Source of the DNA: Candidatus Acidiferrum sp.
Lineage (GTDB): Bacteria > Acidobacteriota > Terriglobia > Acidiferrales > UBA7541
NCBI GenBank assembly: GCA_035314425.1
Contig: DATFZN010000114.1
Span: 4,232-68,231, forward strand
Length of the DNA: 64,000 nucleotides
Direction of reading: 5' to 3'
Shown: positions 35,844 to 57,162 of the stretch, one piece after another
Position numbering within the stretch: the stretch's first letter is position 1
Layout of the letters: the number at the start of each line of letters is the position of its first letter
The notes under the pieces: generated by a model
The model's database searches: none
Seen by the model: the letters and a program-made list of their open reading frames with translations, nothing else
What the model was told of the DNA's origin: nothing
Program-made: the position numbers and the translations under genes

Positions 35844-36292
35844 CGGTGGCCCTCTTCCGCGAGCGCGACCGGCCCGCTTGGTGCATTCGGGTCATCACCC
35901 AAAACGTAACGTAGAATCTCATACAAGACTTCCGGTTTCACCGGTTTCTGGACGAAATGCTTTGCGCCCTTTTGCAGAGCAGCCAGAATATTTTCCTGAT
36001 AGCCAACGGAAGACACCATGACAATGCGGGCGTTGGAATGTTGCCGAACGATGCGTTCGACGGCTTCAATGCCCTCCATTTGCGGCATGGTGATGTCCAT
36101 CAGCACGATGTCGGCTTTGGTGCGGTTGTACTCCGCAATGGCGGTGAGGCCATCGCCCGCCTCGCCAGCAACCTCGCCGCCGAAAAGCTCAATCATCTTG
36201 ATGAGATTTTTGCGAGCGAAGACGGAGTCGTCCACGACCAAGTAGCGGACGGGTTGATTGTCGCTCCGAAGTAAAGGTGCAAACTGTTGCAT
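35840..36292 (-). CDS. cheY: CheY-like single-domain response regulator
   Basis: Receiver motifs LVVDDS, DIVLMDITMP, MVSS and VQKP. Confidence 0.85.
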   Translation of the reverse strand: MQQFAPLLRSDNQPVRYLVVDDSVFARKNLIKMIELFGGEVAGEAGDGLTAIAEYNRTKADIVLMDITMPQMEGIEAVERIVRQHSNARIVMVSSVGYQENILAALQKGAKHFVQKPVKPEVLYEILRYVLGDDPNAPSGPVALAEEGHR

Positions 36293-36319
36293 AAACTTCT
36301 CCTTTGGCCCCGCACGTCG

Positions 36320-37471
36320 TCAGACGCGTGGAGTCGAAACTGGTGTCCTATCGTTCTTTTCCGCGCGATCACTTTTCTCGAGCTTTTCCTGCGCATCGGT
36401 TTTTTCTGTATTGCCGCGATCAGAAGCGAATTGAGTAATCAGAAACTGGCTGAGCCCATCAAGTGGAATAATTTTTGAGGCGTAGCCCTTATTGATCGCG
36501 GCACGGGGCATGCCTGGGACCACGCAGGTATCTTCGCTTTGCGCGATGGTTACGCCGCCAGCTGAGCGAATCGCGCCCAAACCTTCCGCGCCGTCTTCAC
36601 CCATGCCAGTCATGAGCACGCCGACGGCGGTCAAACCAAACTCTTGGGCGACGGAATGAAACAGAACGTCCACCGAGGGGCGATGGCCATTGATCGGAAG
36701 ACCATCGGAAAGAATCACCATTTCACCCCGCGGCATGCGCCGGACCATCATGTGTCGATTGCCGGGACAGATCAACACGCGGCCGGCGATCAGGAGATCG
36801 CCGGACTTCGCCTCCTGCACATCGACAGCGCAACATTCATCAAGGCGACGCGCAAACATTTCCGTGAAACCTTCGGGCATGTGCTGTACGACCACGAATG
36901 TGGCCGGAAACTCTACGGGAATTTGTGAGAGCAGATATTGCAAGGCATTGGGACCACCGGTAGAGATACCAATTGCGATTACGCGATTGGGTTGAACGGC
37001 CGGCCGGCCGCGTTTTTTGTGAAGTGGAGGAAGTTCGATCTCTGCCCGCGGAATTGCTTTTGTTCCCCCCGCCCGTTTGGCTACCTTGATTTTTTCGATG
37101 AGCTGGACTGCAACCGTTTCGAGATGACCAGTAGCGGCATCCTTTGGCTTCGGAACGAAATCGATTGCGCCAAGTGCCAGGGCTTTGAACGTGGAGTAGG
37201 CGCCTTCCTTCGAATGGGTGCTGAAAACAATTACGGGGAGCGGCGCGCTACGCATGATCATGCGCAGTGTCTCAATTCCATCCATGCGCGGCATTTCTAA
37301 ATCGAGGGTGACGACGTCGGGACGCAACTCGGCAATTTTGCGCAGAGCAAACGCGCCGTCCATTGCCGTACCCACGACCTCAACATCGGGATCGCGTTCG
37401 AGAATCAATGGAATCAACTTCCGCATGAGCGCAGAGTCGTCCACCACCAGCACTCGGACCCGTTCTCTCAT
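36320..37471 (-). CDS. cheB: Protein-glutamate methylesterase CheB (REC + methylesterase)
   Basis: REC (VLVVDDS, DVVTLDLEMP) plus catalytic GISTGGP, VVQHMP and GMGEDG. Confidence 0.95.
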   Translation of the reverse strand: MRERVRVLVVDDSALMRKLIPLILERDPDVEVVGTAMDGAFALRKIAELRPDVVTLDLEMPRMDGIETLRMIMRSAPLPVIVFSTHSKEGAYSTFKALALGAIDFVPKPKDAATGHLETVAVQLIEKIKVAKRAGGTKAIPRAEIELPPLHKKRGRPAVQPNRVIAIGISTGGPNALQYLLSQIPVEFPATFVVVQHMPEGFTEMFARRLDECCAVDVQEAKSGDLLIAGRVLICPGNRHMMVRRMPRGEMVILSDGLPINGHRPSVDVLFHSVAQEFGLTAVGVLMTGMGEDGAEGLGAIRSAGGVTIAQSEDTCVVPGMPRAAINKGYASKIIPLDGLSQFLITQFASDRGNTEKTDAQEKLEKSDRAEKNDRTPVSTPRV

Positions 37472-39561: not shown

Positions 39562-40463
39562 GAATTATCCTCGATTCGCTTATAGGCAGTGCCGTTATTT
39601 TCGTGAACCATCTTGAATTTCTGGGTCAATCCGAAAAGGCTCTCGGCGTGGCCGACGAATAAGTAGCCACCCGGATTCAAGCAATGCCAGAACTTTTCGA
39701 TCAAACGCTTTTGTTCTGCTTCATCGAAATAGATCATGACGTTGCGGCAAAGGATGATGTCGTTGCGGCGGGGCAAAAACTCGGTCTTGAGATTATGGAA
39801 GTCGAATTGGACCAAATCCTTGAGCTGTTTCTTTACCGCGTACCTATCGCTGGACTTTTCGAAATAGCGCAGACGAGTGGTGTAATCCACTGGTTCCATC
39901 TGAATTTCTGTATAAAGACCTTCCTGACCAGTGCGCAAGCTTGCGTAGCTGATGTCGGAGGCGACAATTTCCAGCTTCCAAGGAGGCGGAATCATCGGCT
40001 TCGGCGAAGGCATCTCGAACGGCAATGGATTCCGCAGGTAGTAGTACGCCAACGCATCGCAAATCAGAATGGCCACGGAATATGGTTCCTGGCCTGCAGA
40101 ACAACCCGCGCTCCAAACCCGCAAATTCCAGTCGCGCCGTTCTTGTTTACGGTGAAGAATTTCTTCCAAAACATTCTTTTGCAGGAGATCGAGTTGCGGA
40201 CGATTGCGAAAAAAACTGGTTTCGTTAACAGTTAAATTTTCAAGCAGAAGGGCGAGTTCGGCTCTTCCCTCGCGACTGGTCAAAAGGCGGTAATAGCTGT
40301 AAAAGGACTCGATTTGACACGCCTTCAGTCTCCGCTGCAGGCGGTCTTTCAGGAAGTGCGAGCGGCGTTCATCGAAATACATGCCGCATTCCTGATAGAC
40401 GAGGGTCTGGAGGAGTTTTAGTTCTGCTTCAGTAAGCTGAACCTGCGCAGTGATCGTTCCCAT
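39558..40463 (-). CDS. cheR: Chemotaxis methyltransferase CheR
   Basis: N-terminal helical CheR domain, ETSFFRN, and SAM-binding VWSAGCSAGQEPYS. Confidence 0.95.
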   Translation of the reverse strand: MGTITAQVQLTEAELKLLQTLVYQECGMYFDERRSHFLKDRLQRRLKACQIESFYSYYRLLTSREGRAELALLLENLTVNETSFFRNRPQLDLLQKNVLEEILHRKQERRDWNLRVWSAGCSAGQEPYSVAILICDALAYYYLRNPLPFEMPSPKPMIPPPWKLEIVASDISYASLRTGQEGLYTEIQMEPVDYTTRLRYFEKSSDRYAVKKQLKDLVQFDFHNLKTEFLPRRNDIILCRNVMIYFDEAEQKRLIEKFWHCLNPGGYLFVGHAESLFGLTQKFKMVHENNGTAYKRIEDNS

Positions 40464-40517
40464 AATGTAGGTGCGTCGAGCCTTTCGAACGGTAACATTT
40501 CCAAGATTTTTGGAAAT

Positions 40518-41003
40518 CTATGTCGGAATTGCGACCGGCTCCGCGGCCTCCTCGAGCTTCTTGAATTCCGGTTGACGCAGAAGACGCGGAATATCCAAGA
40601 TGATGACCAGCCGGCCTTTTAACTTTCCGACTCCGGTGACGTAGCTGGACTCACCCTCCGCGAAAACGGTACCCGGTGCTTCGATTTCCGAGGGTGGAAT
40701 TTTCAAAACCTCCGAAGCGGAGCTAACGATCAGGCCCAGAAGTTTATTCCCCAATTCCACAACCAGAATTCGATTTCGCTTATCGCTTTTGACATCTTTG
40801 TCGCCAAACCGCTTACGCAGATCCATAACCGGAATAATCTTCCCGCGAAGATTGATCACCCCTTCGATGGCTTCAGGTGCATTGGGCACCGAAGTAATTT
40901 CCGGGACGCGGACAATTTCCCGCACGGAAGCGATACGCACCCCGTACGTTTCATTGCCGATCCGAAATCCGACTACTTGATGGTCTTTCTCCATGGTTCG
41001 CAC
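40518..41003 (-). CDS. cheW: CheW coupling protein
   Basis: Motifs ..VVGFRIGNETYGVRIASVREIV.. and INLRGKIIPVMDLR. 161 aa. Confidence 0.9.
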   Translation of the reverse strand: MRTMEKDHQVVGFRIGNETYGVRIASVREIVRVPEITSVPNAPEAIEGVINLRGKIIPVMDLRKRFGDKDVKSDKRNRILVVELGNKLLGLIVSSASEVLKIPPSEIEAPGTVFAEGESSYVTGVGKLKGRLVIILDIPRLLRQPEFKKLEEAAEPVAIPT

Positions 41004-41009
41004 TGTTTC

Positions 41010-43019
41010 TTAGGACTGGCTCACTTCGGCGTATTCGAATTCATTTGCACCAGACTGTGAAGAGCGACGATGGCTAGGGATTGCGTCGCGACGATGGCGA
41101 ACTTGCCCGGCGCGATCGATGACAAACTGGTCCATATTGTCCAGAAGATTTCTGGAAAGCTTCAACATTTGCTCGGCGGCAGCCGAAAGCTCCGTTGAAC
41201 TGGAAGCCGATTGCTGAACGAGTTCACGCATCTTGTCCATGGCGCGGACAACGGCTTGCGCACCGGAAGCCTGCTCTTCAACCGCGGAACTGATCTCCTG
41301 GGTAATTTCGGTGAGGCGATTGGTCGCCTTGGCAATCTGCGAAGAACCCACAGACTGCTCGTTGGTGGCTGCGCCGATTTCCTGAGAAAACTTGTAGACC
41401 TCCGTAACCACATCAGAGATTTTGTGGAGTGCCGTGCCCAGGTCATTTCCAAAGCCCAAACCTTCTTCCACGATCCGCGTACTCTGTTCCATGTTTTCGA
41501 CCGCCTGACGAGCCTCGCGCTGAATGCTCTGAATCAGGTCCGCGATTTCTTTCGTTGATTGTGTGGACTTTTCCGCTAGTTTCCGAACTTCGTCGGCGAC
41601 GACGGCAAATCCGAGTCCATGTTCGCCGGCGCGGGCGGCTTCGATCGCAGCGTTCAACGCCAGAAGATTGGTTTGTTCGGCAAGGTCATCGATGACTTCA
41701 ATGATTTTTCCGATGTCATCGGCGCGGTGACCAAGAATATTGATGATTTCCGCGGAAGACTGGATGGAACGGTTAGTGCGATTCAAGCCATCGGTGGTCT
41801 TCTCCATGGTGGCAATGCCAGTGACCACCTCTTCTCTCGAACGGTTCGCGATATCCAGAAGAACTTTGGCGGTATCTGCAACGCGCTGGATCGAAGTGAC
41901 CATCTGATCGATGGAAGCCGAGGTTTCTGCAACGCTGCTAGCCTGCACCTGCGTGTTCTTCACGACGTTTTGAACGTTTACGCTCATCTCATGCATCGTG
42001 CTGGTCACTTCCTCAATGGCGGAAGAAGCTTGCACGCTGACCTTGGCCGATTCATCGGCAGCGCCGGCGACTTGGTTGGACCCGGCGGATACTTGCGAAG
42101 CGCCGTCGCGGGTGGAGCGAACAATCTGTTGGAGTCCATGCGACATGCGCGCGAACGCGTTGCCGAGCGTGTCGCGCTTGGATCGCGGAGCGACTTCGAT
42201 GGTCAAATCGCCTTCGGCAACCGCCATGGAAACGGTGGCCATTTCCTTCAGATACGCGACCATGTTGTTGAAAGTGGTGGCCAGCGCGCCGATTTCGTCG
42301 TTGCGATGGATATCAATGTTCTGGTCCAGGTCCCCGGCATCGCCAATCTCGCGGGCCACAGCAATCAAATGCTGGAGAGGTTCGGTGATGGATTTTGCCG
42401 TGCGCACTGCGGTGATGCCGATGAATATCATGGCGCAAAGTGTTCCCACGAGGATAAAGATCAAACTGACGGTGCTGGCGCGGCGGGCCGCATCCTGAGA
42501 ATCGCTGAGGGCTTTACTCATGTCCGTATTGGCCTGATCGAGAACTGTGGAAGACTTGGTGAGCCAGGAAGACGGATCTTTCTGAAGATAGAAAATCTGT
42601 AGATCAGAAACGGTGGCATCGCCAGAATCAACTTGGTGCCGCTTGGCAAGCAGAGGTTTCGCAAAATTATCTGCCCAATTGGCTTCGGTGCTCTCGACCT
42701 GAATCAGAGCAGTGCGTAGAAAGTCGTTGTTTGTCTGCGACTGGGCACGCTTGACCAAATCACTCAGTTCGGAGAATCCGCGGTTAACTTTTTCTTCGTC
42801 GCGTGGATCGCCGCTCAGTAGAAAATTATTCAGGTTCAAGCGGTTGATCATGATCTGATAACGCGCCGCTTCTGCGGTGCGCACACTCTCAAGTGTGGAT
42901 GCGGCTTCAGCACTGGCCGACCGCGCTTTCCAAATGGTGGCGAGGTCAACCATCAAGAGAATGGCGAGAATCGCCAGGATCGCCCCGAAACTTCGATATA
43001 GTCGATTTCCGATCGTCAT
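41010..43019 (-). CDS. Methyl-accepting chemotaxis protein with CHASE3-like periplasmic domain and HAMP
   Basis: Conserved hairpin [36 protein letters not shown]. Two TM segments bracket an approximately 170-aa domain with NNFLLSGDPRDEEKV (CHASE3-like). ATG 43019 is preceded by GGAGGAAG. Confidence 0.9.
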   Translation of the reverse strand: MTIGNRLYRSFGAILAILAILLMVDLATIWKARSASAEAASTLESVRTAEAARYQIMINRLNLNNFLLSGDPRDEEKVNRGFSELSDLVKRAQSQTNNDFLRTALIQVESTEANWADNFAKPLLAKRHQVDSGDATVSDLQIFYLQKDPSSWLTKSSTVLDQANTDMSKALSDSQDAARRASTVSLIFILVGTLCAMIFIGITAVRTAKSITEPLQHLIAVAREIGDAGDLDQNIDIHRNDEIGALATTFNNMVAYLKEMATVSMAVAEGDLTIEVAPRSKRDTLGNAFARMSHGLQQIVRSTRDGASQVSAGSNQVAGAADESAKVSVQASSAIEEVTSTMHEMSVNVQNVVKNTQVQASSVAETSASIDQMVTSIQRVADTAKVLLDIANRSREEVVTGIATMEKTTDGLNRTNRSIQSSAEIINILGHRADDIGKIIEVIDDLAEQTNLLALNAAIEAARAGEHGLGFAVVADEVRKLAEKSTQSTKEIADLIQSIQREARQAVENMEQSTRIVEEGLGFGNDLGTALHKISDVVTEVYKFSQEIGAATNEQSVGSSQIAKATNRLTEITQEISSAVEEQASGAQAVVRAMDKMRELVQQSASSSTELSAAAEQMLKLSRNLLDNMDQFVIDRAGQVRHRRDAIPSHRRSSQSGANEFEYAEVSQS

Positions 43020-43098
43020 TGCGTCACTTCCTCCACTCCGCCAACCGCGCTTCGAGGCCGTGCTTCGCTCATCGGCAGCGCAAAACAAACAAATCTAA

Positions 43099-43407
43099 CT
43101 ATTGACCGAAATTGAATTCGATCAGTTGCGAGGTTTCTTCAGGCGCAGCGTCAAATCGCCATTCCTTAACCGCTTCCAAGCACGGCTGAACCAGGACGGG
43201 AGAGCCGCCAACAGCGCGAACACTTTTAACGTGACCGTCCGGAGCGATCACGGCTTCCACCTTGACCTTCCCGGTAATATTCATCTTGCGAGCCAGATCC
43301 GGGTAAACGGGAGTGACTTTCGTTTTCGCCTTGCGCCTGCCTTCTTCGGCTTGCTGAGCACTGGCTAAAGATCCCGCCAAAACAAATATTGCTGCTCCCG
43401 TAACCAT
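43099..43407 (-). CDS. Small secreted TonB C-terminal-domain protein
   Basis: Signal peptide MVTGAAIFVLAGSLASAQQ, then PVYPDLARKMNITGKVKVEAVIAPDGHV..V.. (TonB_C fold). ATG 43407 is preceded by GGAGAAAG. The ORF-track start at 43524 would place the sigma-54 promoter inside the gene. Confidence 0.75.
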   Translation of the reverse strand: MVTGAAIFVLAGSLASAQQAEEGRRKAKTKVTPVYPDLARKMNITGKVKVEAVIAPDGHVKSVRAVGGSPVLVQPCLEAVKEWRFDAAPEETSQLIEFNFGQ

Positions 43408-43479
43408 TTTCTTTCTCCATCGAACACATGTCCGCACTTCGGACCTCCTGGGCGAGGGAAAGTCCCCCACCAAGGAAAA

Positions 43480-43496
43480 GGCAAGTGCAGTGCCAA
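43480..43496 (-). promoter_or_regulatory. Sigma-54 (-24/-12) promoter, near consensus
   Basis: The minus strand reads TTGGCACTGCACTTGCC (TGGCAC-N5-TTGC) with correct GG/GC spacing, about 75 nt upstream of ATG 43407. Confidence 0.7.
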
Positions 43497-43794
43497 GTTC
43501 AGGGGGTTTCTGGAGAAAGTCCAAAGAACCTCGGCGGCGGCCGCAAGCCCCTCAGAGGAATGGGGATATGCTTTCGCAAAGAACGGCGCCGGTCTTTTAT
43601 TTCATGCGCCAACGTCTCAGGTACCCGCCGAAACTACGAAATGGATCTCACGCTGAGACAATTCGCTTCAAACAGGGTTAGCCCCAGGTAACGCATCCGC
43701 CGCAGCCCAAGGATGAGTGATTGACTCAGATTGAGATTGCTCAGTAGCTTTGAAGTGTGCAGTCTTAACTTGAGACAGAGAGACCTTACCCCGT

Positions 43795-46122
43795 ATGCGT
43801 GGACGAAAGACTACAACTTCTCGCCGCAGCTCCGCGGTCCGTGGCCGGACCCATTCCGGCCAGGTTGCATCTGATTACGCACAGGAATTAATGAACCTGG
43901 CGGTTGCCGCGGCAAATTCACGGGAATTGCCAGCGTTTCTTGCTGGATTTGCCTCACGCGCGGCCGAAATGCTGGACGCCCAATGGGTCGGGGTCGGCGA
44001 GATTATTGGCAGCCGAGTTGAACTGTATTCGCCGGTGCAGGAATTCCCGGCTAGCCCGGCGGTATGGGACTGGTTGCTGCTAAATATTCCCTGCAAGCGA
44101 GATAGCCTCGAGGTAGTCACGGTTCCGGCAGGCGCCGGCCACTGCGCGTTCTTTCCGATTTATGCCAGCGACGGCGAATTGATGGGCACGCTCTGCCTGC
44201 TGCGGGCTGAACCGAAGTTTTCGGCCGCGCAGGAGCGCCTCTTGACAGCCCTGGCCAGCCATGCGGCGCTTTCCATGGAGAAGGTGCGGCGCTTTTCGCA
44301 GCTGGAGCGCTCGAAGAAGCAATGGGTCGAAGATATTGATGCGATCAGCGACTATATCGTGGTGCACGACCAAAGCTGGAAAATTGTGCGCACCAACAGG
44401 ACATTGGCGACGCATCTCGGCAGGCCACCCGCGGCACTAGTCGGCGAGCCCATGGCCAACCTCCGGAATATCGCAGAAACGGGCAGCGCGCTACCCTGCC
44501 CTTTTTGCAAGAACACCAAGCAAGCACGAGAAGAATATATCGCCACGGCGGAAGGGCGCACATTTTTGGTTTCCACTTCACGAACGCCGGGAGCGGTCGA
44601 AGAAGAAACACGCACGATTCACGTACTGAAGGACATTACCGATCGCCGGGAAGCAGAGCGCCGCTACCGGGAATTATTCGACAGCATTCAAGAAGGATTG
44701 TTTTTTGCCACGCCGGATGGACAATTCTTGGATGTGAATGATGCCATGGTTCGTATGTTAGGTTACGATTCGCGCGAAGAGTTGTTGCGCGCGGACGTTA
44801 GCCCGCACCTTTATCCCACCGTTGCGGCCAAGGATCGGTTCGTGCGCGCGATTGCCGAGCGAGGTGCGCTGCGCAATTACGAAGAGACCCTCCGCCGAAA
44901 AGACGGCAGCCTGCTGCACACCATGCAGAACATTAGCGCGGTGCGAGATGCCCAGGGAAGAGTGGTGCAAACACGGGGATTGATGCTCGATGTGACAGAA
45001 CAAAAAATGTTTCAGTCGCAACTGCAGCGAGAGCGCGACTTTAACCAGAAAATTCTGAATACCACGCAGAGCATGATTCTGGTGTTGGATACGGCGGGAT
45101 TGATCAGCTACGTGAATAAGCGGTGCTACGAAGCGGGATATAAGGAAGAAGAGCTCATCGGTCACCGGCTCGAGAATTGGATCGACTTCTCGCATCGGAT
45201 TGACTTCGAAGCCGCTTTGCAGACCACGGCACTTGGCCACCAGGTAGAAAATTTGGAATTGCGCGTCGCCCGAAGCGATGGATCGATGGGACATTTTTCG
45301 ATCAGCCTCAGCCCTATGCGCGATGAGTCGAAGCAGGTAAACAGCGTTGTCGTGGTAATGACGGACATCACCGACGCAGCTTTGCTGCAGGCAAAACTCG
45401 CCCATTCCGAAAAGATGGCAACAATTGGGCAATTGGTTTCTGGCGTGGCGCATGAAGTGAACAACCCGCTGGCGGCTATCTTAGGATTTACCGATTTGTT
45501 GCTGGAAAACCCGGAGGTGCCAGAAGCCGCGCGAGAAGATCTGCGGATTATTCTGCAGGAAACTCAGCGCACGAAAGAGATTGTCCAGGATCTTTTGAGT
45601 TTCGCGCGCCAGCGTCCGGCACAGCGCGAAGCGGTCCAAATCAACGCCATTCTCCGACAGACAATCAAGCTCCGGAGTTACGATTTTTCGAGCCACGGGG
45701 TGGAGGTGGTGGAGGAATTTGACGAGAGTATTGCTCCAACACTGGGCGACGGACAACAGCTGCAACAAGTCTTTCTCAATATATTGAACAACGCGTACGA
45801 TGCCATACAAGAGTCCGGAAATCACGGACAGATTCGCATACGGACACGCCGGACACAGGATTCGGTGGAGGTGGCCTTTATCGATAATGGCATTGGCCTT
45901 ACCGAGCCGGAACGGATCTTTGATCCATTTTTCACGACCAAGCAGGTAGGAAAAGGCACTGGCCTCGGGCTGAGCATTTGTTACGGCATTGTGCGGGCCC
46001 ACGGCGGAGAAATTCTTTGTTGGAACAACGCCCAAGATTCTGGAAGCACGTTCGTCGTGCGATTGCCGCAAACCTCCGAATCAGCATTGGCAGCTGCTGC
46101 AGCGAAAGAGGCATCGCGATGA
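43795..46122 (+). CDS. Cytoplasmic sensor histidine kinase (GAF + three PAS-like + HisKA + HATPase)
   Basis: No TM segments. H-box VAHEVNNPL, N-box NILNNAYDA and G-boxes DNGIG / KGTGLGLSICYGIV. PAS-like segments begin near residues 185, 290 and 420. Confidence 0.9.
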   Translation: MRGRKTTTSRRSSAVRGRTHSGQVASDYAQELMNLAVAAANSRELPAFLAGFASRAAEMLDAQWVGVGEIIGSRVELYSPVQEFPASPAVWDWLLLNIPCKRDSLEVVTVPAGAGHCAFFPIYASDGELMGTLCLLRAEPKFSAAQERLLTALASHAALSMEKVRRFSQLERSKKQWVEDIDAISDYIVVHDQSWKIVRTNRTLATHLGRPPAALVGEPMANLRNIAETGSALPCPFCKNTKQAREEYIATAEGRTFLVSTSRTPGAVEEETRTIHVLKDITDRREAERRYRELFDSIQEGLFFATPDGQFLDVNDAMVRMLGYDSREELLRADVSPHLYPTVAAKDRFVRAIAERGALRNYEETLRRKDGSLLHTMQNISAVRDAQGRVVQTRGLMLDVTEQKMFQSQLQRERDFNQKILNTTQSMILVLDTAGLISYVNKRCYEAGYKEEELIGHRLENWIDFSHRIDFEAALQTTALGHQVENLELRVARSDGSMGHFSISLSPMRDESKQVNSVVVVMTDITDAALLQAKLAHSEKMATIGQLVSGVAHEVNNPLAAILGFTDLLLENPEVPEAAREDLRIILQETQRTKEIVQDLLSFARQRPAQREAVQINAILRQTIKLRSYDFSSHGVEVVEEFDESIAPTLGDGQQLQQVFLNILNNAYDAIQESGNHGQIRIRTRRTQDSVEVAFIDNGIGLTEPERIFDPFFTTKQVGKGTGLGLSICYGIVRAHGGEILCWNNAQDSGSTFVVRLPQTSESALAAAAAKEASR

Positions 46123-46517
46123 GCGTTCGAACGGAGACGAAAGTCTTGGCGCCTATTCTGCTCATTGAAGATGAGGATTCTGTGCGCGCGTTTGTGCGCT
46201 CGGCGCTCGAGCGTCGTGGATATTCTGTCGTGCAGGCATCATCGGGCACGCAAGGGGTAGAGCAACTGGCCTCGGCACACTATGCCGGGGTGATTTCCGA
46301 CATTCGCATGCCCGGCAAGGTCAACGGCGCGGATATTCATCAATGGATACAAAAGAATCGACCAGAATTAGCGGAGAGAATCATTTTGATCAGTGGCGAT
46401 ACAGCGAATAGCGAAACGCAGTCATTGCTTCGTGGTAGTTCCACACCTTGCATTGAAAAACCGTTTCGTGTTCAACACTTGATTTCTATCGTGGAGAAGA
46501 CATTCGGAAAACCATGA
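46119..46517 (+). CDS. Single-domain response regulator (canonical receiver)
   Basis: Motifs ILLIEDED, VISDIRMP, LISGD and IEKPF. ATGA overlaps with both neighbouring genes. The ORF-track start at 45978 lies inside the kinase gene. Confidence 0.85.
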   Translation: MSVRTETKVLAPILLIEDEDSVRAFVRSALERRGYSVVQASSGTQGVEQLASAHYAGVISDIRMPGKVNGADIHQWIQKNRPELAERIILISGDTANSETQSLLRGSSTPCIEKPFRVQHLISIVEKTFGKP

Positions 46518-47938
46518 GCGACGACCTAAAAACCAAACTTCTGGTAGTGGACGATGAGCAGAGCATCCGTAAGCTGTGCATGACCATCGGAAACTCGTTG
46601 GGCTTTTTATGCCATGAAGCCGAGAGCGCAGAGATTGCTGCCACGCGACTAGAAACCGATCCGCCTGACCTGGTACTGACGGACTTAAAGCTCCCCAATC
46701 AGTCTGGTGTGGAATTGCTGAAACAGATTCGCACTGTTTTGCCTCGGGCCGAAATTGCCATCATGACCGGACACGGTTCGATTGAGTCTGCAGTCGATGC
46801 GATGAAACTCGGCGCATACGACTATATCGAAAAGCCCTTTCGAGTCGAGAAGTTGCGGCTCTTGCTGCAACGCATGGCCGAAAAGGTGCGCTTGGTAAAT
46901 GAAAACGCCTTCTTGCGCGAACGAGTCAACACCGAGGAAAACGTGGATGGGATTATCGGCAGTTCCTCGGCGATGCAAGATGTTCTGCGAATGATTTCGC
47001 GGTTGAAAGACACCCGGACACCCGTCCTGATTTCAGGGGAAAGCGGCACGGGAAAAGAACTGGTTGCACGCGCCATTCACTTCCGCGGAGCCATGGCCCA
47101 GACCCCGTTTGTGGCGGTGGATTGCGGTTCGTTGGTCCCCACACTGATGGAAAGCGAACTTTTTGGTTATGAGAAAGGCGCATTTACCGGTGCCACAAAA
47201 TCTAAATCCGGATTGTTCGCCTCTGCAAACGGCGGAAGCATATTCCTCGATGAAATCGGGGAAATTCCGCTGGAGATGCAGGCAAAACTCCTTCGCGTGT
47301 TGCAGGAGAAAGAGGTGCGGCCGGTTGGTAGCAACGATCGGGTCAGCATCGACGTTCGCGTGATTGCGGCAACCAATCGAGATTTGGAAGCTGCCTATCG
47401 CGACGGAACGTTTCGAAAGGACCTCTATTTCCGATTGAACGTGGTTACCGTTCATTTGCCTCCGCTGCGGGACAGGCGTTCGGATATTCCTGTCCTCGTC
47501 CATTATTTTTTGAATCGCTACGCGCCCGGCGCGCATGTACATGTAACCCCTGCGGCGATGAAGAGCCTGCTGCAATACGACTGGCCAGGCAATGTGCGTG
47601 AACTAGAGAATTGTGTCGCCCGCGCATTGACGCTCGGCGATCAAGAGGTCATCGATGTAAAGGACTTGCCACCTGCCATTCGAGCGGAACAAAGCCTCAC
47701 CCAGAGCCTGGCAGTGGAGGAGGCGAGCTCCCTTTCCACCACGGCGTTGGCGGAGATGGAAAAAATGACTATTTTGCGCGTTTTCGAGCAAGCACACGGA
47801 GACAAAGCACTGGCTGGAAAAATGTTGGGAATCAGCCGTGCCACGCTCTACAGAAAATTAAAGCGATACAATATTCCACCCCGCGGCAGCACGGAACAGA
47901 TTGAAAAAGAGGCGGAAATCCATTCGGTAGAACAATGA
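46514..47938 (+). CDS. Sigma-54-dependent transcriptional activator (NtrC family: REC + AAA+ + Fis-type HTH)
   Basis: Walker A GESGTGKE, the sigma-54 contact loop GAFTGA, and the C-terminal HTH GISRATLYRKLKRY. Confidence 0.95.
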   Translation: MSDDLKTKLLVVDDEQSIRKLCMTIGNSLGFLCHEAESAEIAATRLETDPPDLVLTDLKLPNQSGVELLKQIRTVLPRAEIAIMTGHGSIESAVDAMKLGAYDYIEKPFRVEKLRLLLQRMAEKVRLVNENAFLRERVNTEENVDGIIGSSSAMQDVLRMISRLKDTRTPVLISGESGTGKELVARAIHFRGAMAQTPFVAVDCGSLVPTLMESELFGYEKGAFTGATKSKSGLFASANGGSIFLDEIGEIPLEMQAKLLRVLQEKEVRPVGSNDRVSIDVRVIAATNRDLEAAYRDGTFRKDLYFRLNVVTVHLPPLRDRRSDIPVLVHYFLNRYAPGAHVHVTPAAMKSLLQYDWPGNVRELENCVARALTLGDQEVIDVKDLPPAIRAEQSLTQSLAVEEASSLSTTALAEMEKMTILRVFEQAHGDKALAGKMLGISRATLYRKLKRYNIPPRGSTEQIEKEAEIHSVEQ

Positions 47939-48095
47939 GCCGTCTCACGCGGTAGCGGCCGGGGATCAAAGTTTCAAATTGCAAGTGAGACACAATCGTT
48001 TCAGTGTGAGACTCAGGTCACTAATTAGGCCCGAAGGAAGTTTTTAAGCTCTTTTGTTTCTGTTACATTCCTGAAAATCAGACCAACTCAGATTT

Positions 48096-48112
48096 TGGTT
48101 CTCGGCGTGCAT
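48096..48112 (+). promoter_or_regulatory. Sigma-54-like -24/-12 element (TGGTTCTCGGCGTGCAT)
   Basis: GG (48097-98) and GC (48109-10) are at consensus spacing with T at -14. It lies 73 nt upstream of ATG 48185, which is preceded by GAGGGA. It shares the CGTGCAT -12 box with 50772..50788. Confidence 0.5.
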
Positions 48113-48184
48113 CCTTCCCCGTGGGGCGGTATGTCCCGTATTGCGCTGGGCGTGTCTTTTCATAAGCGTGAGGGAACCTAAGGA

Positions 48185-48517
48185 ATGTCGCTGATCGCCG
48201 ATGAACGCGAATGCGCAAAACAATTGGCAAAGTTTTTTCCGGACTTGCCTGCAACTCGCTTCCTGGTCCGAGTGCAATCTGCTAGGCCCGGTCGAGAGAA
48301 ACTGCAGGAATCGACGGTAGTCGAATTTGGCATGGGGCAATTCGCAATCTTCACGACATCGCTACCGCTGGAGTTTGATGAACGCATCCGATTGGTTCAG
48401 CACAGTGGGGGGAAGCCGGTGGAAGCGGAAGTGATTGCTTTGCAATATCACGAAGGAATGAAAGCAGTGGCCGTGCGGTTTGTGGAAGGCACCTGGGACT
48501 GGATAATGCAGCCGTGA
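48185..48517 (+). CDS. Hypothetical small protein (beta-rich; faint PilZ-like pattern without c-di-GMP motifs)
   Basis: Good SD. The stop overlaps the next start (GTGA). No recognisable catalytic or binding motif. Confidence 0.6.
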   Translation: MSLIADERECAKQLAKFFPDLPATRFLVRVQSARPGREKLQESTVVEFGMGQFAIFTTSLPLEFDERIRLVQHSGGKPVEAEVIALQYHEGMKAVAVRFVEGTWDWIMQP

Positions 48518-49959
48518 ACAAAATGATAACAACATTAAATTTGCAAGCACCTCAGAAGCCAGATAACTCGCGAAATGCGCAATGGGAAGAAAACCGCTCG
48601 GTTTTTCCCATTTACATCGCGCTGGCCAAGCACCTTCAAATTGAAATTCCGTTTCCGCAAAACAAGCGCGTTTTGCCGGAGAAGGCGGAACTTGAACTGT
48701 TCACTCAGGTTGATACCTGGCTAAATGCCATGGATCAACAAGTGATGGTGCATCAATTGCGCCACCTTCTTCAGATGACTACGCTGAACGCCAGCGAAAG
48801 CGGCTTGCGCGGGCTGATCATGCGACATCTGAAGAAATCCGGCAAGACTCTCGCGGATCGAGACAAGATTGATTTCCTATTGGTTCAATACTTCGCGCTC
48901 TGCGCCCCGGCTAAAATCTTTCACAAGCAAATCGAACTGGTGGACGTGGCGCAGGTCATGAAACCTGTTTTTGGTGAGGTGAGCACAGCGCCGCTGCCGT
49001 GGTGTGAGCCGCTTGAAAAAATGATTCATTCTCTGCGAACCTTCAAGAGCCTGCGCGATATTCTGAAAACCAATTTTATCGAACAAGGGCGGCGGGTAAA
49101 AGAAACCGCAGGCAATATGTTCTACGATCCGAGTGCCATGTTGGCTTTTGTGCAATTCAATTTCCTCTTGCGCCGGACACTTATCGAGTTGATGCACGCA
49201 GATTTGATCTACATCCGATCCGGGATCAATCATCTGGAAACTGCTGGTGCCAAGACCATCGATTGTCAATCCTTTGGATTGACAGCGTCTGAACCGGTTG
49301 CGAAGGTTCGCCAATATGCCGACGAATGGAAGCAGCCATTCCAGAAGGAATACACCGAACGGTCCGTGAATCAGGCTTTCGACAAGCTTCTGGCTCTGCG
49401 CGCGGACATCGAGCGCGCCGTTGAAAAGGTCTTGGGGAAGCCACTTGAGCCAGCTCCTGCGTCCACTTCAGGGGCAAAACTCGAGCCCCATTCGCCAGCA
49501 AAGGCTGCAGAGGTCAAAACGTCTCCGGCGGCAATAATGAATGAATCTGCAGAACCAGAGCTGGACTTCGAATCCTGTATGGAACAGATTTGGGAGCAGC
49601 TTATCTCCGCACCGCCCTCTCGAGGACGTTCCATGACCACTGTAAAGGTGGGAGGCGCGCGAGTGCTGATGTCTTCCTGGGAAGTGACTGCGTTTGTCAG
49701 TGAAGATGGTTCCGCGGCGGAAGATCTACGACGCGCCGTGGTTGCGCGCGCAATGGTCACCGCAGCCACGGAAAAAGCGAAGACTTCACCCACGACGGCC
49801 AATCTCGAGCGCGTACTCCCTATTGCCCGGGTCGAAGTTTCGCGCTTGCAGGAACGCGTGGAACTAGCCAAACAAGCCAAGGACACAGAAGCTGCCGTGA
49901 ATCTGGGCATCAGCACGAAGAGATTGCTGTCCGCTTTAGACGAAGCCGAGAAGCTTTGA
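48514..49959 (+). CDS. Hypothetical 481-aa soluble protein (helical N-domain, Pro/Ala/Ser linker, C-terminal coiled-coil-rich domain)
   Basis: Long uninterrupted ORF, co-directional and translationally coupled. No TM segment, signal peptide or known motif recognised. Confidence 0.7.
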   Translation: MNKMITTLNLQAPQKPDNSRNAQWEENRSVFPIYIALAKHLQIEIPFPQNKRVLPEKAELELFTQVDTWLNAMDQQVMVHQLRHLLQMTTLNASESGLRGLIMRHLKKSGKTLADRDKIDFLLVQYFALCAPAKIFHKQIELVDVAQVMKPVFGEVSTAPLPWCEPLEKMIHSLRTFKSLRDILKTNFIEQGRRVKETAGNMFYDPSAMLAFVQFNFLLRRTLIELMHADLIYIRSGINHLETAGAKTIDCQSFGLTASEPVAKVRQYADEWKQPFQKEYTERSVNQAFDKLLALRADIERAVEKVLGKPLEPAPASTSGAKLEPHSPAKAAEVKTSPAAIMNESAEPELDFESCMEQIWEQLISAPPSRGRSMTTVKVGGARVLMSSWEVTAFVSEDGSAAEDLRRAVVARAMVTAATEKAKTSPTTANLERVLPIARVEVSRLQERVELAKQAKDTEAAVNLGISTKRLLSALDEAEKL

Positions 49960-50007
49960 TTCGCTGCCAAAGAAGCTCATCAAGCGCACGGGATTCGGGA
50001 GCCCATT

Positions 50008-50691
50008 TTGCGAAACACGAGTGTCTTAATTTTGACCGACGATTCCGAGTTTGCCCGGCTGCTCAGCGCTTGTTGGCAGACAGAACGTCAATTGCCTGGC
50101 CTCTCTGTGCTCACCAGCGATTTATGGAAAGGCGGCGAGAATGTTGCCCCAGACCTGATCGTAATCGGCCCACTAAAAGAAGATAAATTCGCGAGCGTGA
50201 TGCGTTCGATCGGCTCGAACACGGCAGTTATTTTTTGCGCTACTTCCGAACACAAGGATTTTGGGCTGCTCCGCAAACGCTACCCCAGGTTACTGCACCT
50301 ACCCCTGCGTGAGGACTGGACCCAGATGATTCTCTTGCTTGCCGGTGAATCGCTAAAGCGTACGGAAGCACTCAAAATTGCGAAGCAAGCGGAACGCAAC
50401 GCCTCGCTGAGCGCCAATCAGGCGACGCTCGGCCGCTACATGATGGATATGAAACGCAATATGAACAACGCGCTGACTTCGCTGCTAGGTAACGCTGAAT
50501 TGTTGTTGCTGGAACCTGGACAACTTTCCGGGCAATCCTTGGCGCAGATAAAGACGATTCACACTATGGCCCTGCGCATCAACGAAATCGTCCAAAGATT
50601 CTCATCGCTCGCCAGTGAAATGCGGGACGCTGAGACGCCTTCTCAGAGTGAGACCGAGGAATCCATCTCGCCGCATTTTACCCCCCGATAG
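50008..50691 (+). CDS. Pseudo-receiver + HisKA/DHp-like domain with Lys in place of the phospho-His; no ATPase domain
   Basis: TTG start preceded by GGGAG. VLILTDDSEF...DLIVIGP is a receiver fold with Gly at the phospho-Asp position. LGRYMMDMKRNMNNALTSLLGNAELLLLE aligns with IGQLVSGVAHEVNNPLAAILGFTDLLLEN of the kinase at 43795, with H replaced by K. Confidence 0.7.
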   Translation: MRNTSVLILTDDSEFARLLSACWQTERQLPGLSVLTSDLWKGGENVAPDLIVIGPLKEDKFASVMRSIGSNTAVIFCATSEHKDFGLLRKRYPRLLHLPLREDWTQMILLLAGESLKRTEALKIAKQAERNASLSANQATLGRYMMDMKRNMNNALTSLLGNAELLLLEPGQLSGQSLAQIKTIHTMALRINEIVQRFSSLASEMRDAETPSQSETEESISPHFTPR

Positions 50692-50771
50692 GGCCAGACA
50701 CCTCCACGATAACTCCCCTGCTTTCAAATACTTAATAGGATTCGACAACAGTTGAGAAAGAGCCGCAAAGC

Positions 50772-50788
50772 TGGCTGTCAACGTGCAT
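50772..50788 (+). promoter_or_regulatory. Sigma-54-like -24/-12 element (TGGCTGTCAACGTGCAT)
   Basis: GG (50773-74) and GC (50785-86) are at consensus spacing, with the same CGTGCAT -12 box as 48096..48112. It lies immediately upstream of the first gene of chemosensory cluster 2. Confidence 0.5.
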
Positions 50789-50797
50789 TTTTCTACT

Positions 50798-51187
50798 ATG
50801 GAGAAGTACGCGGAGCAACTGCACGTGCCCAAAATAGTGCTGATCGTCGATGATTCACCCGCTCAGGTGAAGCTGATTCAAGGGCTTCTCGAGCCCGAAG
50901 GTTATTGCCCAGTGGGCTTGAGTGACCCAAAACGCGTGGAGGAGATGATCACCTCAGAGCGGCCGAGTGTGATTTTGCTCGATGTAGTGATGCCCGAGCG
51001 AAACGGGTTTCAGGTATGCCGGGAATTGAAAAGCAGCAACGACTTCAATTCTATCCCGGTCATCCTGGTCACCTCCAAAGACACAGCAAGCGATCGTTAC
51101 TGGGGAGAGCAGCAGGGTGCCGACGGTTACGTAACAAAACCCTTCACACGGGAAGAATTATTGCGCGCGGTTCGACGGTTTGCGTAA
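50798..51187 (+). CDS. Single-domain response regulator (PilG/PilH position)
   Basis: Motifs VLIVDDS, VILLDVVMP, LVTSK and VTKPF. The start is uncertain. The ORF-track GTG 50783 lies inside the -12 box, and ATG 50798 would be nearly leaderless. GTG 50825 has GGAG 9 nt upstream. Confidence 0.85.
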   Translation: MEKYAEQLHVPKIVLIVDDSPAQVKLIQGLLEPEGYCPVGLSDPKRVEEMITSERPSVILLDVVMPERNGFQVCRELKSSNDFNSIPVILVTSKDTASDRYWGEQQGADGYVTKPFTREELLRAVRRFA

Positions 51188-51205
51188 GAGGCCAGAGGAA
51201 ACGGA

Positions 51206-51736
51206 ATGAACGAAGACTTTCATCTTGTACCGATGCCCGCCGACGCGGAGATGGTCGATCTGCTGGAGGCCCTTGGGCCAATCGCCGAGCGCCCGCCGGA
51301 ATCGCAATATTGCGTTTTTCGCAGCGGTCGGGAACGGTTTTGCTTGCCGGTGTTAGACGTGGAGGAGGTAGTGGAATGGCCGCTGATTACACCCTTGCCA
51401 TTGTCGCCAGCCTATGTCCTGGGAATTTTCAATCTGCGTGGCGCCATCGTTCCGCTGATTGATATCGCGTTGACGGAAGGCCGTAGGACGGGATTGTTGC
51501 CAAAGCACGTGGTGGTCGCTTCGCTTCGCCCGGATGGTCATCATGAGGAAATACGGGTTGCGATCGCAGCGGACGAAGTCGTCGGAACCTACTCCGTGAA
51601 CGAAGAAGAAGATTTGTTGGAGCAAGCGCCGGAAAACGTGCCGCATTGCATTGGGATGTTGCGCCACGAAGACCGGTTGGCGCTGGTTATTGATCTTCGC
51701 CGGCTGTTGGAAGTGTACCCCGGTCCGAGTATTTAA
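51206..51736 (+). CDS. CheW-like coupling protein (PilI position)
   Basis: Motifs ..[19 protein letters not shown].. and [13 protein letters not shown]. Confidence 0.85.
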
Positions 51737-51765
51737 AAGTTTTCGAGAGAGCTTGGGAGGTAGGA

Positions 51766-53214
51766 ATGAAATCGCGACTGAGCACTAACATCTGGACGCT
51801 GGCCATCCTGAACGCCGTCGTATTCTTTGTGGTACTGGGATTGGCATTCAGCGCAGGACGCCAGGCAAACGGCGCATCTATTTTCGATGTCGGGGCTATG
51901 CCCAGCGGAGCGAGCGGAAACTTGATCTTCGCGCTGGTACTGGCCGTGGCCACCAGCATGTTCCTGGCGTGGAGATTAGGAAACGCCATACTCTCCCCAG
52001 TGAATGAGCTCGCCGCGTTCTCCGAACGGCTGGCGGCGGGTGATTCGAAAGCGCGCGCCGATGTCAGCTCAAACGACGAGTTTGGGCATATCGCAGAAAA
52101 CCTGAATCGCGCCGTTGCCCGCGTCTCGAAGGCCGCCAACAACCAGGAAGCCACCGAATCACTGCAGCGCAGCATCACAGATCTGCTTGCCGTCATCAAC
52201 CAGGTCGCCCGCGGAGATCTGACCCTGCGCGGCAAGGTCACCAACGACGCCCTCGGCAACGTTTCCGACTCGATCAACTACATGCTCGAGAATTTCACTA
52301 AGGTGCTAGAACGCGTTCGTAAAGCCGCTATGGAAGTCACCGCCTGCTCGAACAATATCCTCGTGGCTGCCGATCAGATGCAGGCCGGCGCGACGCAACA
52401 GGACCAGGAAATTACCAATACGTCGAGCGCGGTGGAGGAGCTTACCGTCTCGATGAAACAAGTGTCCAACAACGCGGAAGCCAGCGCAGAAGCGGCTCGC
52501 CGTGCACTCGATGCCGCTGAACAGGGTAATCGCGCCGTGCGCGACACGCTCGATGGCATGCAGCGAATTCGTTCTTCCGTGCAGGCGACCGCGAAGAAGA
52601 TCAAGTCTCTCGGAGACCGTTCGCTGGAAATCTCCGAAATCATCAACGTGATCAACGACATCACCGAACAGACCAACCTGCTGGCACTAAACGCCGCAAT
52701 TGAAGCAGCGCGCGCCGGTGAGGCAGGCCGTGGCTTCGCGGTGGTCGCCGACGAAGTTCGTAAATTGGCGGAGCACTCACGCAGCGCAACGAAAGATATC
52801 GCGGCACTGATTAAGGCGATTCAGGCCGAGACCAACGAAGCCGTGGTGGTCATGGAGGAAGGCACCAAGGAAGTGGAATCCGGAGCAACCCTCGCTGATC
52901 AGGCGGGACGCGCGCTCGACGCAATTTCGAGCGTGGTTCGCCAGTCGGCGGAACTTGTGCAAGAGATTTCACTCGCTTCCAAACAGCAGGTTCGCGGTAC
53001 AGAAGGGGTCGCGCACGCCATGCAGATCATTTCCAACATTACGCGCCAGACCTCTCAGGGTACACGCGGCACGGTGGCCACGGTAAGCCAACTGGTCAAA
53101 CTCTCTGACCAGCTAAACGAAGCGCTGGCTCAATTCCGGGCAAACTCAAAGACCAACAGTAGCTCGGCCATGGGAGATTCGCAGCATCCCGTCCCAGCGG
53201 GCGCTTTGCGGTAA
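51766..53214 (+). CDS. Methyl-accepting chemotaxis protein with minimal (about 20-aa) periplasmic loop + HAMP (PilJ position)
   Basis: Hairpin [36 protein letters not shown]. Two TM helices (residues about 9-30 and 52-72). Confidence 0.9.
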
Positions 53215-53274
53215 GGCAAATAGTGTTTCGGCGTTTCGGTGAGATCGAACGATCGAGGCAAGAGCGGGACGGTT

Positions 53275-54159
53275 ATGAGCGATCGCCACGGGGCGGGACA
53301 CAGTTTGACCGAACACGAACTGAGCGAGATCCGCATGCTGATCGAAGAGCGGACAGGCATACGTTTCGACGAGTCGCGCGAGAGATTTTTCTCCACGCGA
53401 GTCCGTGAACATCTGCACGCAAACGGTTTTCACCACGGCAGCGAGTTGGTCAGGGCGATCCGCAAGAGCAATGTGGAATATGAGGCACTGCTTGAACGGT
53501 TGCTAACCCAGGAAACATCGTTCTTCCGCTATCCCGCGGTGTTCGATGCGTTTGAGAAAAGAGTTTTGCCGGAACTGCACGCCAAGAACTTCTGGAAGAG
53601 CCCGCGGACGCTTCGGGTGTGGAGCGCTGGGTGTTCCACCGGCGAGGAGCCCTACTCCATCGCGATCACCATACTCGACACCCTTTCTTTGGCGGATGCG
53701 TGGAACGTGGAAATCCTGGCGACCGATGTGGGCCGTCACGCGCTGAAACATGCAGAACGCGGAGTGTATTCTGGCCGCAGTATTTCCAGTGTGAAAGCTT
53801 CGCAGCTTGCCGCACATTTCACAGTGGCAAAAGATGGGCATCAAGTGAAGCCTCGCGTCCGCAAGTTGGTTAGTTTCGCACAGATGAACTTGGCGTCACC
53901 CGTTTATTTGGGTCGCATGGACTTGATTTTCTGCATGAATGTTCTTATTTACTTTTCGGAAGCGCGGTGTGCCGCACTCGTACAGCGGTTTTATGAAGCG
54001 CTGGAGCCCGGTGGATATCTTTTTCTCGGGCATTCTGAGTCCATTTCGAAGATGACGGTGAAATTTCAGGCCATCGTTTTGGGTGATTGCATCTTGTATC
54101 GCAAGCCATTGGCGGATGAAATGCAAAAGCACGAATTGGTGGCGGAGGGACGCGGGTGA
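53275..54159 (+). CDS. CheR-type methyltransferase (PilK position)
   Basis: Motifs ETSFFRY and VWSAGCSTGEEPYS. The start is ATG 53275 or ORF-track GTG 53239. Confidence 0.9.
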   Translation: MSDRHGAGHSLTEHELSEIRMLIEERTGIRFDESRERFFSTRVREHLHANGFHHGSELVRAIRKSNVEYEALLERLLTQETSFFRYPAVFDAFEKRVLPELHAKNFWKSPRTLRVWSAGCSTGEEPYSIAITILDTLSLADAWNVEILATDVGRHALKHAERGVYSGRSISSVKASQLAAHFTVAKDGHQVKPRVRKLVSFAQMNLASPVYLGRMDLIFCMNVLIYFSEARCAALVQRFYEALEPGGYLFLGHSESISKMTVKFQAIVLGDCILYRKPLADEMQKHELVAEGRG

Positions 54160-57155: not shown

Positions 57156-57162
57156 ACGAGCC

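Follow-up and report, generated by a model that had tools for sequence, protein, structure and literature searches.

In a stretch of DNA from Candidatus Acidiferrum sp. (contig DATFZN010000114.1; hereafter the window, meaning the whole 64,000 nucleotides analysed), clusters of the half-site TGAGAC and the dyad TCTCA-N3-TGAGA lie upstream of three sigma-54 promoters, termed P1, P2 and P3, and these sites are most probably the upstream activating sequences (UAS), or enhancers, of the two-component sigma-54 activator encoded beside them at 46514-47938. Its predicted targets are two chemosensory gene clusters, downstream of P1 and P3, and an operon of three genes for proteins of 110, 481 and 227 aa, downstream of P2. 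A sequence-only reading of the same DNA had proposed that the clusters serve as UAS of this local enhancer-binding protein (EBP), and the proposal is now supported by the status of the EBP as sole activator of its type in the window, by the invariance of its helix-turn-helix (HTH) domain and by an association of the dyad with EBPs across phyla. The promoters and the sites that accompany them are as follows.

43496-43480, minus strand: sigma-54 promoter P1, TTGGCAC-N5-TTGCC (TTGGCACTGCACTTGCC), with the -24 GG at 43494-43493 and the -12 GC at 43482-43481.
43614-43619, minus strand: lone half-site of the P1 enhancer, GTCTCA (TGAGAC on the minus strand), 26 bp nearer to the promoter than the P1 dyad.
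43645-43659: main P1 dyad in its 15-bp form, aTCTCAcgcTGAGAC (13-bp form TCTCAcgcTGAGA at 43646-58), centre 43652.
43724-43736: second, kinase-proximal dyad, ACTCAgatTGAGA, overlapping a candidate sigma-70 promoter.
43763-43775: third dyad, TCTTAactTGAGA (14-bp form TCTTAactTGAGAC at 43763-43776), ~20 bp upstream of the kinase ATG and containing part of TGAGACA at 43771-77.
47942-47947: distal half-site of P2, GTCTCA (within GTCTCAC at 47942-48), conserved in orthologues.
47985-47992: direct copy GTGAGACA, the lone half-site of the P2 core.
47999-48011: near-dyad of P2, TTTCAgtgTGAGA, centre 48005.
47986-48012: P2 core, TGAGAC-N7-GTTTCAgtgTGAGAC, comprising lone half-site and dyad.
48096-48111, plus strand: sigma-54 promoter P2, TGGTTC-N5-GTGCA (TGGTTCTCGGCGTGCA); orthologue consensus TTGGCGc-N4-GCGTGCA.
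50598-50603: distal half-site of P3, TTCTCA, inside the 227-aa gene at codons Phe-Ser.
50631-50636: lone half-site of P3, TGAGAC, inside the 3' end of the 227-aa gene.
50641-50653: P3 dyad, TCTCAgagTGAGA, centre 50647, with GTGAGAC at 50648-54.
50631-50654: P3 core, TGAGAC-N4-TCTCAgagTGAGAC, in the 3' end of the 227-aa gene.
50772-50787, plus strand: sigma-54 promoter P3, TGGCTG-N5-GTGCA (TGGCTGTCAACGTGCA); orthologue consensus aaGCTGGCCGCTGACGTGCA.

Every site quoted in the sequence-only reading, and each of its three sigma-54 elements, is present where that reading had placed it. All three promoters have the sigma-54 form, with GG (-24) and GC (-12) 10 nt apart in a TGGC...TGC(A/C) context, and these GG and GC pairs are at least 90% conserved in 68 (P1), 75 (P2) and 79 (P3) aligned orthologues. 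The distances that had been given from dyad centre to -24 GG (158, 92 and 126 bp for P1, P2 and P3) are reproduced, as is the 21-bp separation of the two direct GTGAGAC copies of P2 (47985 and 48006). Three sites had been overlooked, namely the dyads at 43724-36 and 43763-75 and the half-site at 50598-50603, all of which are conserved in orthologues. Each promoter is accompanied by one dyad and one or two lone half-sites, lying 90-160 bp upstream of the -24 element, within the ~80-250 bp over which the several dyad-symmetric sites of an NtrC-family UAS are expected. Read in the direction of the promoter, the layout at P1 is GTCTCA-N3-TGAGAC, N26, TGAGAC, ~115 bp, TGGCA-N6-CTTGCC; at P2 it is GTCTCA, N28-39, TGAGAC, N7-8, GTTTCA-N3-TGAGAC, ~82 bp, TTGGCG-N6-CGTGCA; and at P3 it is TTCTCA, N26, TGAGAC, N4, TCTCA-N3-TGAGAC, ~117 bp, CTGGCC-N6-CGTGCA. 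UAS are typically found ~100-150 bp upstream, and genes for EBPs usually cluster with their targets (PMC7057263, PMC6615313).

The signal lies in the placement of the TGAGAC copies, not in their number. The hexamer had been described as only sporadic elsewhere. The window holds 20 copies vs 25.9 +/- 5.4 in dinucleotide shuffles, which is no enrichment. Eight of the 20 copies fall inside the three clusters, and seven occur within 170 bp upstream of the three promoters vs 0.16 expected (Poisson P ~4.5e-10, for windows chosen post hoc). Allowing at most one mismatch, TCTCA-N3-TGAGA has five matches in the window, all of them in the three clusters (1.66 expected window-wide), and the 15-bp GTCTCA-N3-TGAGAC has four, again all in the clusters. 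Measured against shuffles of the window, the background frequency of the hexamer fails to explain three clusters positioned exactly upstream of sigma-54 promoters.

Comparison among species carries the argument further. With the 481-aa protein as query, a scan that took one genome for each species yielded 80 syntenic Acidoferrales loci (67-88% identity); a homology search with the same protein reached close relatives only, at 75% identity or more among the best 120. The proposed sites held up in this comparison, being nearly invariant in the 80 species-level loci and standing at a fixed distance from conserved -24/-12 elements, with diverged DNA flanking them. With positions counted from the anchor gene, TGAGAC accumulates at precisely three places in the 67 full-length loci (232, 196 and 107 copies vs 1-3 per 100-bp bin elsewhere), and dyads with no more than one mismatch number 235 in 1.6 Mb of orthologous DNA vs 2 after shuffling, essentially all at these same three. 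In the alignments, motif columns are at least 90% conserved vs 30-45% for the surrounding non-coding columns; the orthologue consensus of the main P1 dyad is cGTCTCAgcgTGAGACc. In 53 of 68 loci the P1 dyad stands 158-159 bp from the GG; the corresponding distance is 90-94 bp in 75 loci for P2 (mode 91) and 124-127 bp in 79 loci for P3, and at none of the three is the intervening sequence conserved. The complete UAS-promoter architecture of P1 recurs in all 73 loci that hold the intergenic region between the TonB_C gene and the kinase gene.

At P1 the lone half-site is separated from the dyad by N26 in 58 of 68 loci and by N25 or N27 in the others, with columns at least 90% conserved, and at P3 the distal half-site lies N26 from the next site in 79/79 loci. 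At P2 the distal half-site is kept, yet 28 to 39 bp separate it from the neighbouring site, depending on the locus. The synteny of kinase, receiver-only response regulator (RR) and EBP genes, together with all three enhancers, is found in ~75 of the 80 species. Seven loci (L027, L031, L037, L041, L042, L048 and L059) carry insertions of 1.5-4.5 kb that separate the 110-aa gene from the EBP gene; in these seven, as well as in L036, the P2 enhancer remains beside its promoter and not beside the EBP gene.

The third cluster lies in the coding sequence of the 227-aa gene, and the sequence-only reading had itself cautioned that it could reflect codon content. The 80 orthologues reject this. Each of the two GAG codons of the P3 core follows a codon that specifies eight different amino acids among the loci and whose third base is T in 80/80 of them (background 17% in the same genes). 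Both Glu codons of the core are GAG in 80/80 loci vs a background of 38%, with neighbouring Glu codons mixed; the Ser codon in the TCTCA of the dyad is TCT in 73/80 loci (background 13%); and the distal Phe-Ser pair is TTC-TCA in 80/80 loci (backgrounds 43.5% and 9%). The stretch between this Phe codon and the stop measures exactly 30 codons in 79/80 loci despite a variable tail sequence, which fits the fixed 126-bp spacing to P3. Given the third-position T and the fixation of synonymous codons, the constraint on the P3 cluster acts on the DNA and not on the protein, and codon usage of the 227-aa gene can be discarded as the source of the cluster. The lone half-site at 50631-50636 is TGAGAC (Thr codon) in 53 loci and TGAGAA (Asn codon) in 27, and therefore its sixth base is less constrained than that of the dyad.

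The EBP itself has the features of a cognate activator encoded nearby: a GAFTGA motif at 47177 and a Walker A motif in its AAA+ domain, and, at the C terminus, an HTH of the Fis type (residues 412-452, nt 47747-47869). Of the proteins scanned in the conserved block, no other has a recognised DNA-binding domain. The HTH (residues ~408-455) is essentially invariant in 75 orthologues, with variation in linker and tail, and this invariance parallels that of the sites, to which the EBP would bind through their dyads. The protein falls below every named NCBIfam equivalog cut-off against which it was tested (AtoC, NtrC, PrsR, ZraR, NtrX, LuxO, GlrR, FlbD and FlgR), with scores and cut-offs of 443/714 for AtoC, 427/558.6 for NtrC, 379/503 for PEP_resp_reg, 378/760 for ZraR, 299/750 for FlgR and 310/750 for FlbD; because 427 bits fall short of 558.6, the EBP is not NtrC. 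A protein identical to it is present on soil and peat metagenome contigs.

The same dyad recurs far beyond the Acidoferrales. When metagenomes were scanned for perfect TCTCA-N3-TGAGA dyads that occur in pairs 5-35 bp apart, a pattern that the three contexts in the window do not fit, 120 loci from many habitats, with 27-74% G+C, were returned. Near-consensus sigma-54 promoters (TGGCA[CT]-N5-[TG]TGC) pointing away from the dyads within 300 bp number 16 in 15 loci vs 1.0 expected from the density in the remainder of the same 120 loci, an enrichment of ~15-fold; a looser pattern is found near the dyad pairs in 24/120 loci. EBP homologues are encoded in 10/120 loci, in most of which the dyads directly adjoin the EBP gene at its start or its end, and all ten proteins have a recognition helix of the form x-A-T-x-Y-R-K/R. 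Two loci (L114 and L117) encode PAS-AAA+-Fis EBPs of 591 and 602 aa, each beside a dyad pair, a sigma-54 promoter and an SDH_alpha-family gene, an arrangement that matches cdsR-cdsB of Clostridioides difficile. The sequence LGISRATLYRK in both of these EBPs is identical to that of the window EBP, in a helix that is near the family consensus and for which no set of EBPs with other motifs served as a negative control. Judged from sequence, TCTCA-N3-TGAGA is a recurrent enhancer type for activators with a Fis-type HTH, and the window EBP has the matching helix.

In one group of metagenome loci, some from human gut, the two dyads form the outer arms of a palindrome of ~50-60 bp (TCTCACCGTGAGACGCATTT...AAATGCGTCTCACGGTGAGA; L110, L127, L130, L137, L151, L153, L159, L172, L181, L187 and L198). 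No sigma-54 promoter is found near these palindromes, except in L159 and there by the looser pattern only; the long palindrome is a different element from the dyad-pair UAS. At L139, positions 4575-4924 hold a tandem array of at least six units containing TCTCAttcTGAGAC, with a period of ~61 bp.

Returning to the window, the regulator genes are flanked on both sides by complete chemosensory clusters, and the gene content is as follows.

34190-35131: PilZ-domain protein, near the minus-strand chemosensory cluster.
35340-43407, minus strand: chemosensory operon, with the TonB_C gene first, then MCP, CheW, CheR, CheA, CheB, CheY and CheX.
43407-43102, minus strand: gene for a small secreted TonB_C-domain protein (102 aa, signal peptide), the first gene after P1.
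43795-46122, plus strand: GAF-PAS-PAS histidine kinase, ATG at 43795, first gene of the plus-strand kinase-RR-EBP operon.
46119-46517, plus strand: receiver-only RR, between kinase and EBP in the same operon.
46514-47938, plus strand: the EBP, a sigma-54 activator with REC-AAA+-Fis HTH organisation (Pfam Response_reg, Sigma54_activat, AAA_lid_14 and HTH_8).
48185-50691, plus strand: operon of the 110-aa, 481-aa and 227-aa genes between P2 and P3, the 227-aa gene occupying 50008..50691.
50798-60929, plus strand: chemosensory cluster of CheY, CheW, MCP, CheR, CheA-REC, CheB, two CheW, REC-DUF4388 and REC.

P1 would drive the TonB_C gene and the minus-strand MCP/CheW/CheR/CheA/CheB/CheY/CheX cluster, P2 the 110-aa, 481-aa and 227-aa genes, and P3 the plus-strand cluster from CheY through the last REC gene. 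The three proteins downstream of P2 have no significant match in Pfam or NCBIfam, and a PDB sequence search with the 481-aa and 227-aa proteins came back empty. More than 3,600 homologues of the 481-aa protein were found, every one labelled 'hypothetical', and its AlphaFold model is mostly helical and of low confidence (pLDDT 61.5, pTM 0.38); for the 227-aa protein, a HisKA match stays below threshold (22.9 bits vs a cut-off of 26.9) and an ATPase domain is absent. The plus-strand chemosensory cluster includes a CheA-REC hybrid, three CheW-like genes and a REC-DUF4388 protein. Its first gene, CheY, has a conserved start, (A/G/T)TGGAGAA (50783-50830, plus strand), ~11-12 nt past the -12 GC, which is the predicted transcription start, and the length of CheY differs among gene callers (120, 129 or 134 aa); possibly the CheY mRNA is leaderless, or else the start has been assigned wrongly.

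Two of the dyads in the P1-kinase intergenic region lie close to the kinase gene, in the company of a further conserved element.

43721-43750, plus strand: candidate sigma-70 promoter TTGACT (43721-26)-N18-TAGCTT (43745-50), ~45 bp upstream of the kinase ATG.

The pattern TTGACT-N17-19-TAnnnT occurs in 70/73 orthologous loci, the conserved form being TTGACT-N18-TAGCKT. The dyad ACTCAgatTGAGA overlaps this candidate promoter and the dyad TCTTAactTGAGAC comes after it; among the same loci, the second dyad is present as TCTCAnnnTGAGT in 72/73 and the third (43763-76) in 73/73, as GTCTCAnnnTnARA on the other strand. NtrC autoregulates a sigma-70 promoter at glnL. By analogy, one might speculate that the two kinase-proximal dyads are operators that confer autoregulation on the kinase-RR-EBP operon; this is the weakest step of the scheme.

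The mechanism we envisage follows the behaviour of the NtrC family (PMC7057263). The co-operonic GAF-PAS-PAS kinase would phosphorylate the receiver domain of the EBP, whose dimers would bind the dyad and half-sites through the Fis-type HTH; receiver phosphorylation would then lead to assembly of the AAA+ hexamer on the enhancer DNA. The DNA between enhancer and promoter would loop, possibly aided by a bending protein at A/T-rich boxes, and ATP hydrolysis would open the sigma-54 closed complex. The predicted output is co-activation of the minus-strand chemosensory cluster (from P1), the 110/481/227-aa operon (P2) and the plus-strand chemosensory cluster (P3), with probable autoregulation of the kinase operon through the two further dyads over its candidate sigma-70 promoter. 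The boxes in question are conserved and lie between enhancer and promoter.

~43545-43575, minus strand: conserved A/T-rich box TAAC...TT.C, between enhancer and P1.
48036-48072: conserved box GGAAnttyyTAAGCC...TTTC...TTCC, between enhancer and P2.
50731-50747: conserved A/T-rich box cTTAaaaAtat.GACA, between enhancer and P3.

These may be sites of a bending protein of the IHF type; by eye, none of the three is a convincing match to the IHF consensus WATCAANNNNTTR, and the boxes have no common position.

Several observations weigh against assigning the sites to the local EBP, or against parts of the scheme built on that assignment. The survey for sigma-54-type AAA+ homologues covered the 64-kb window, where the EBP is the only one; another EBP with the same HTH, or further targets, may lie elsewhere in the genome. 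rpoN is absent from the same 64 kb, in which no RpoN box is found. In one orthologous locus (L036), the P2 and P3 enhancers are intact and no kinase, RR or EBP gene lies within 10 kb upstream; adjacency of enhancer and activator gene is therefore not obligatory. The TLYRK of the shared helix is close to the HTH_8 family consensus, which makes a match in the helix a weak discriminator. As for autoregulation, the sigma-70 assignment of TTGACT-N18-TAGCTT draws on conservation, because a sigma-70 consensus scan of 43380-43830 called nothing.

Of the alternatives, the one that survives best is that the clusters are genuine sigma-54 enhancers bound by a different activator encoded elsewhere, e.g. 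a paralogue with the same HTH class, and that the local EBP acts on other targets. The state of L036 and the confinement of the EBP survey to the window both leave room for such a protein, and the use of the same dyad by unrelated EBPs in other phyla makes paralogues of this specificity conceivable. We nonetheless regard it as unlikely: the kinase-RR-EBP genes keep company with the three enhancers in nearly all of the species, the region upstream of the EBP has three dyads of its own, HTH and sites are both invariant, and EBP genes usually sit beside their targets (PMC6615313).

A second alternative, quite improbable in our estimation, would make the sites operators of a transcription factor that is not an EBP, or of a nucleoid protein, such as a repressor gating the three promoters. 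Dyad symmetry is common to many regulator families, and the dyads at 43724-36 and 43763-75 are placed as they would be for a repressor of the kinase operon. Against this, the sites stand 90-160 bp upstream of the -24 element and not over it, at a distance fixed for each promoter; the same dyad pairs elsewhere abut EBP genes and show the ~15-fold enrichment for sigma-54 promoters; and no other recognised DNA-binding domain occurs among the scanned proteins of the conserved block. That the clusters bind no protein at all, and instead represent chance clustering, a codon by-product within the 227-aa gene or a small hairpin in the transcripts (TCTCA-loop-TGAGA), is scarcely credible: TGAGAC shows no excess in the window, one of the clusters is coding and the dyad could make a stem of 5-6 bp, but the clusters are conserved in 80 species at three fixed positions, the third-position T persists across eight amino acids beside synonymous codons fixed in 80/80, and an RNA element is ruled out by lone half-sites that are equally conserved with no pairing partner, by a stem with a 3-nt loop, no T tract and no Rfam match, and by the fact that the sites lie upstream of their promoters.

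The assignment of the clusters to the local two-component EBP as its UAS amounts to a concrete regulon prediction for a widespread, uncultured order of soil Acidobacteriota known from metagenome-assembled genomes: a single pair of kinase and activator would switch on two chemosensory pathways together with a conserved operon that has an unannotated 481-aa product. Our literature search found no direct description of TGAGAC in connection with sigma-54 or an EBP, and none of this regulon or of regulation in the Acidoferrales (Acidoferrum/Acidiferrum). Three points are of particular interest: the coding-embedded enhancer, the placing of two chemosensory systems on one sigma-54 switch, and the correspondence of helix to half-site across phyla. 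The P3 cluster is a clean case of the first, in which a requirement of the DNA overrides codon choice and fixes the length of the protein tail. With regard to the last, the link of one recognition-helix sequence to one half-site across phyla should help to predict EBP targets in metagenomes. A more ambitious proposal, which we advance tentatively and which could well prove wrong, is that there exists a cross-phylum Fis-HTH specificity class with the helix (R/S/P/K)-A-T-L-Y-R-K and the cognate site TCTCA-N3-TGAGA, and that in the Acidoferrales one two-component master switch of this class co-induces two chemosensory arrays and a three-gene operon, with one enhancer in the coding sequence of a target and operators on its own promoter. 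If helix class did correspond to dyad class in this way, sequence alone could be enough to reveal the targets of many sigma-54 activators that are as yet uncharacterised. The general understanding of sigma-54 enhancers is unchanged by these findings.

Among known systems, the closest in DNA site is the CdsR/DioR class of the Clostridiales. The predicted UAS of C. difficile CdsR is CGTCTCAAAATGATATAGAATCTCATTTTGAGACT (Nie et al. 2019, PMC6615313 Table S3), and expression of cdsB requires cdsR, sigL and the region from -153 to -223, which contains two inverted repeats (Gu et al. 2018, PMC5767170). These published genetics lend further weight to the reading of the clusters as UAS of the local EBP. 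The class shares with the window the GTCTCA/TCTCA-N3-TGAGA(C) half-sites with their 3-nt spacer, arranged in pairs upstream of -24/-12 elements with the activator gene adjacent, and the CdsR-like EBPs of L114 and L117 share the turn and recognition helix noted above. In overall sequence, the window EBP is 45-46% identical to these two proteins over AAA+ and HTH, a comparison made with metagenome relatives and not with C. difficile CdsR. However, CdsR is a one-component PAS-AAA+-Fis activator of a cysteine desulfidase gene in Firmicutes, whereas the window EBP is a REC-AAA+-Fis response regulator of Acidobacteriota with three target promoters. A CdsR orthologue is ruled out by the REC input domain and by che and uncharacterised genes as targets in place of cdsB (SDH_alpha), and by all indications the two share a DNA-binding class only.

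In function, a second point of reference is provided by the flagellar activators FlrC, FleR, FlgR and FlbD, response-regulator EBPs that serve motility or chemosensory gene sets at sigma-54 promoters, as the window EBP is predicted to do. For FlrC and FlbD, sites downstream of the promoter are possible, whereas those in the window are upstream; the window EBP scores far below the FlgR and FlbD cut-offs, and no flagellar genes were seen in the conserved block.

In architecture, the system resembles NtrC. At glnAp2, NtrC (NR-I) binds several dyads ~100-150 bp upstream of a sigma-54 promoter, with the core CACCA-N3-TGGTG, and acts through DNA looping; extra sites overlapping the sigma-70 promoter of glnL/glnAp1 bring about autoregulation. 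The 5-N3-5 geometry is that of both NtrC and LuxO sites. The window EBP has in common with NtrC the two-component REC-AAA+-Fis organisation, the 5-N3-5 palindrome, the upstream dyads and the sites over a sigma-70 promoter (here a candidate one), and differs from it in half-site sequence, sensor kinase and regulon. Judged by input domain, targets and sub-threshold equivalog scores, the window EBP is an orthologue of none of these activators. In sum, the system would work like any NtrC-type enhancer, and its classification as an ordinary bacterial enhancer is well supported.

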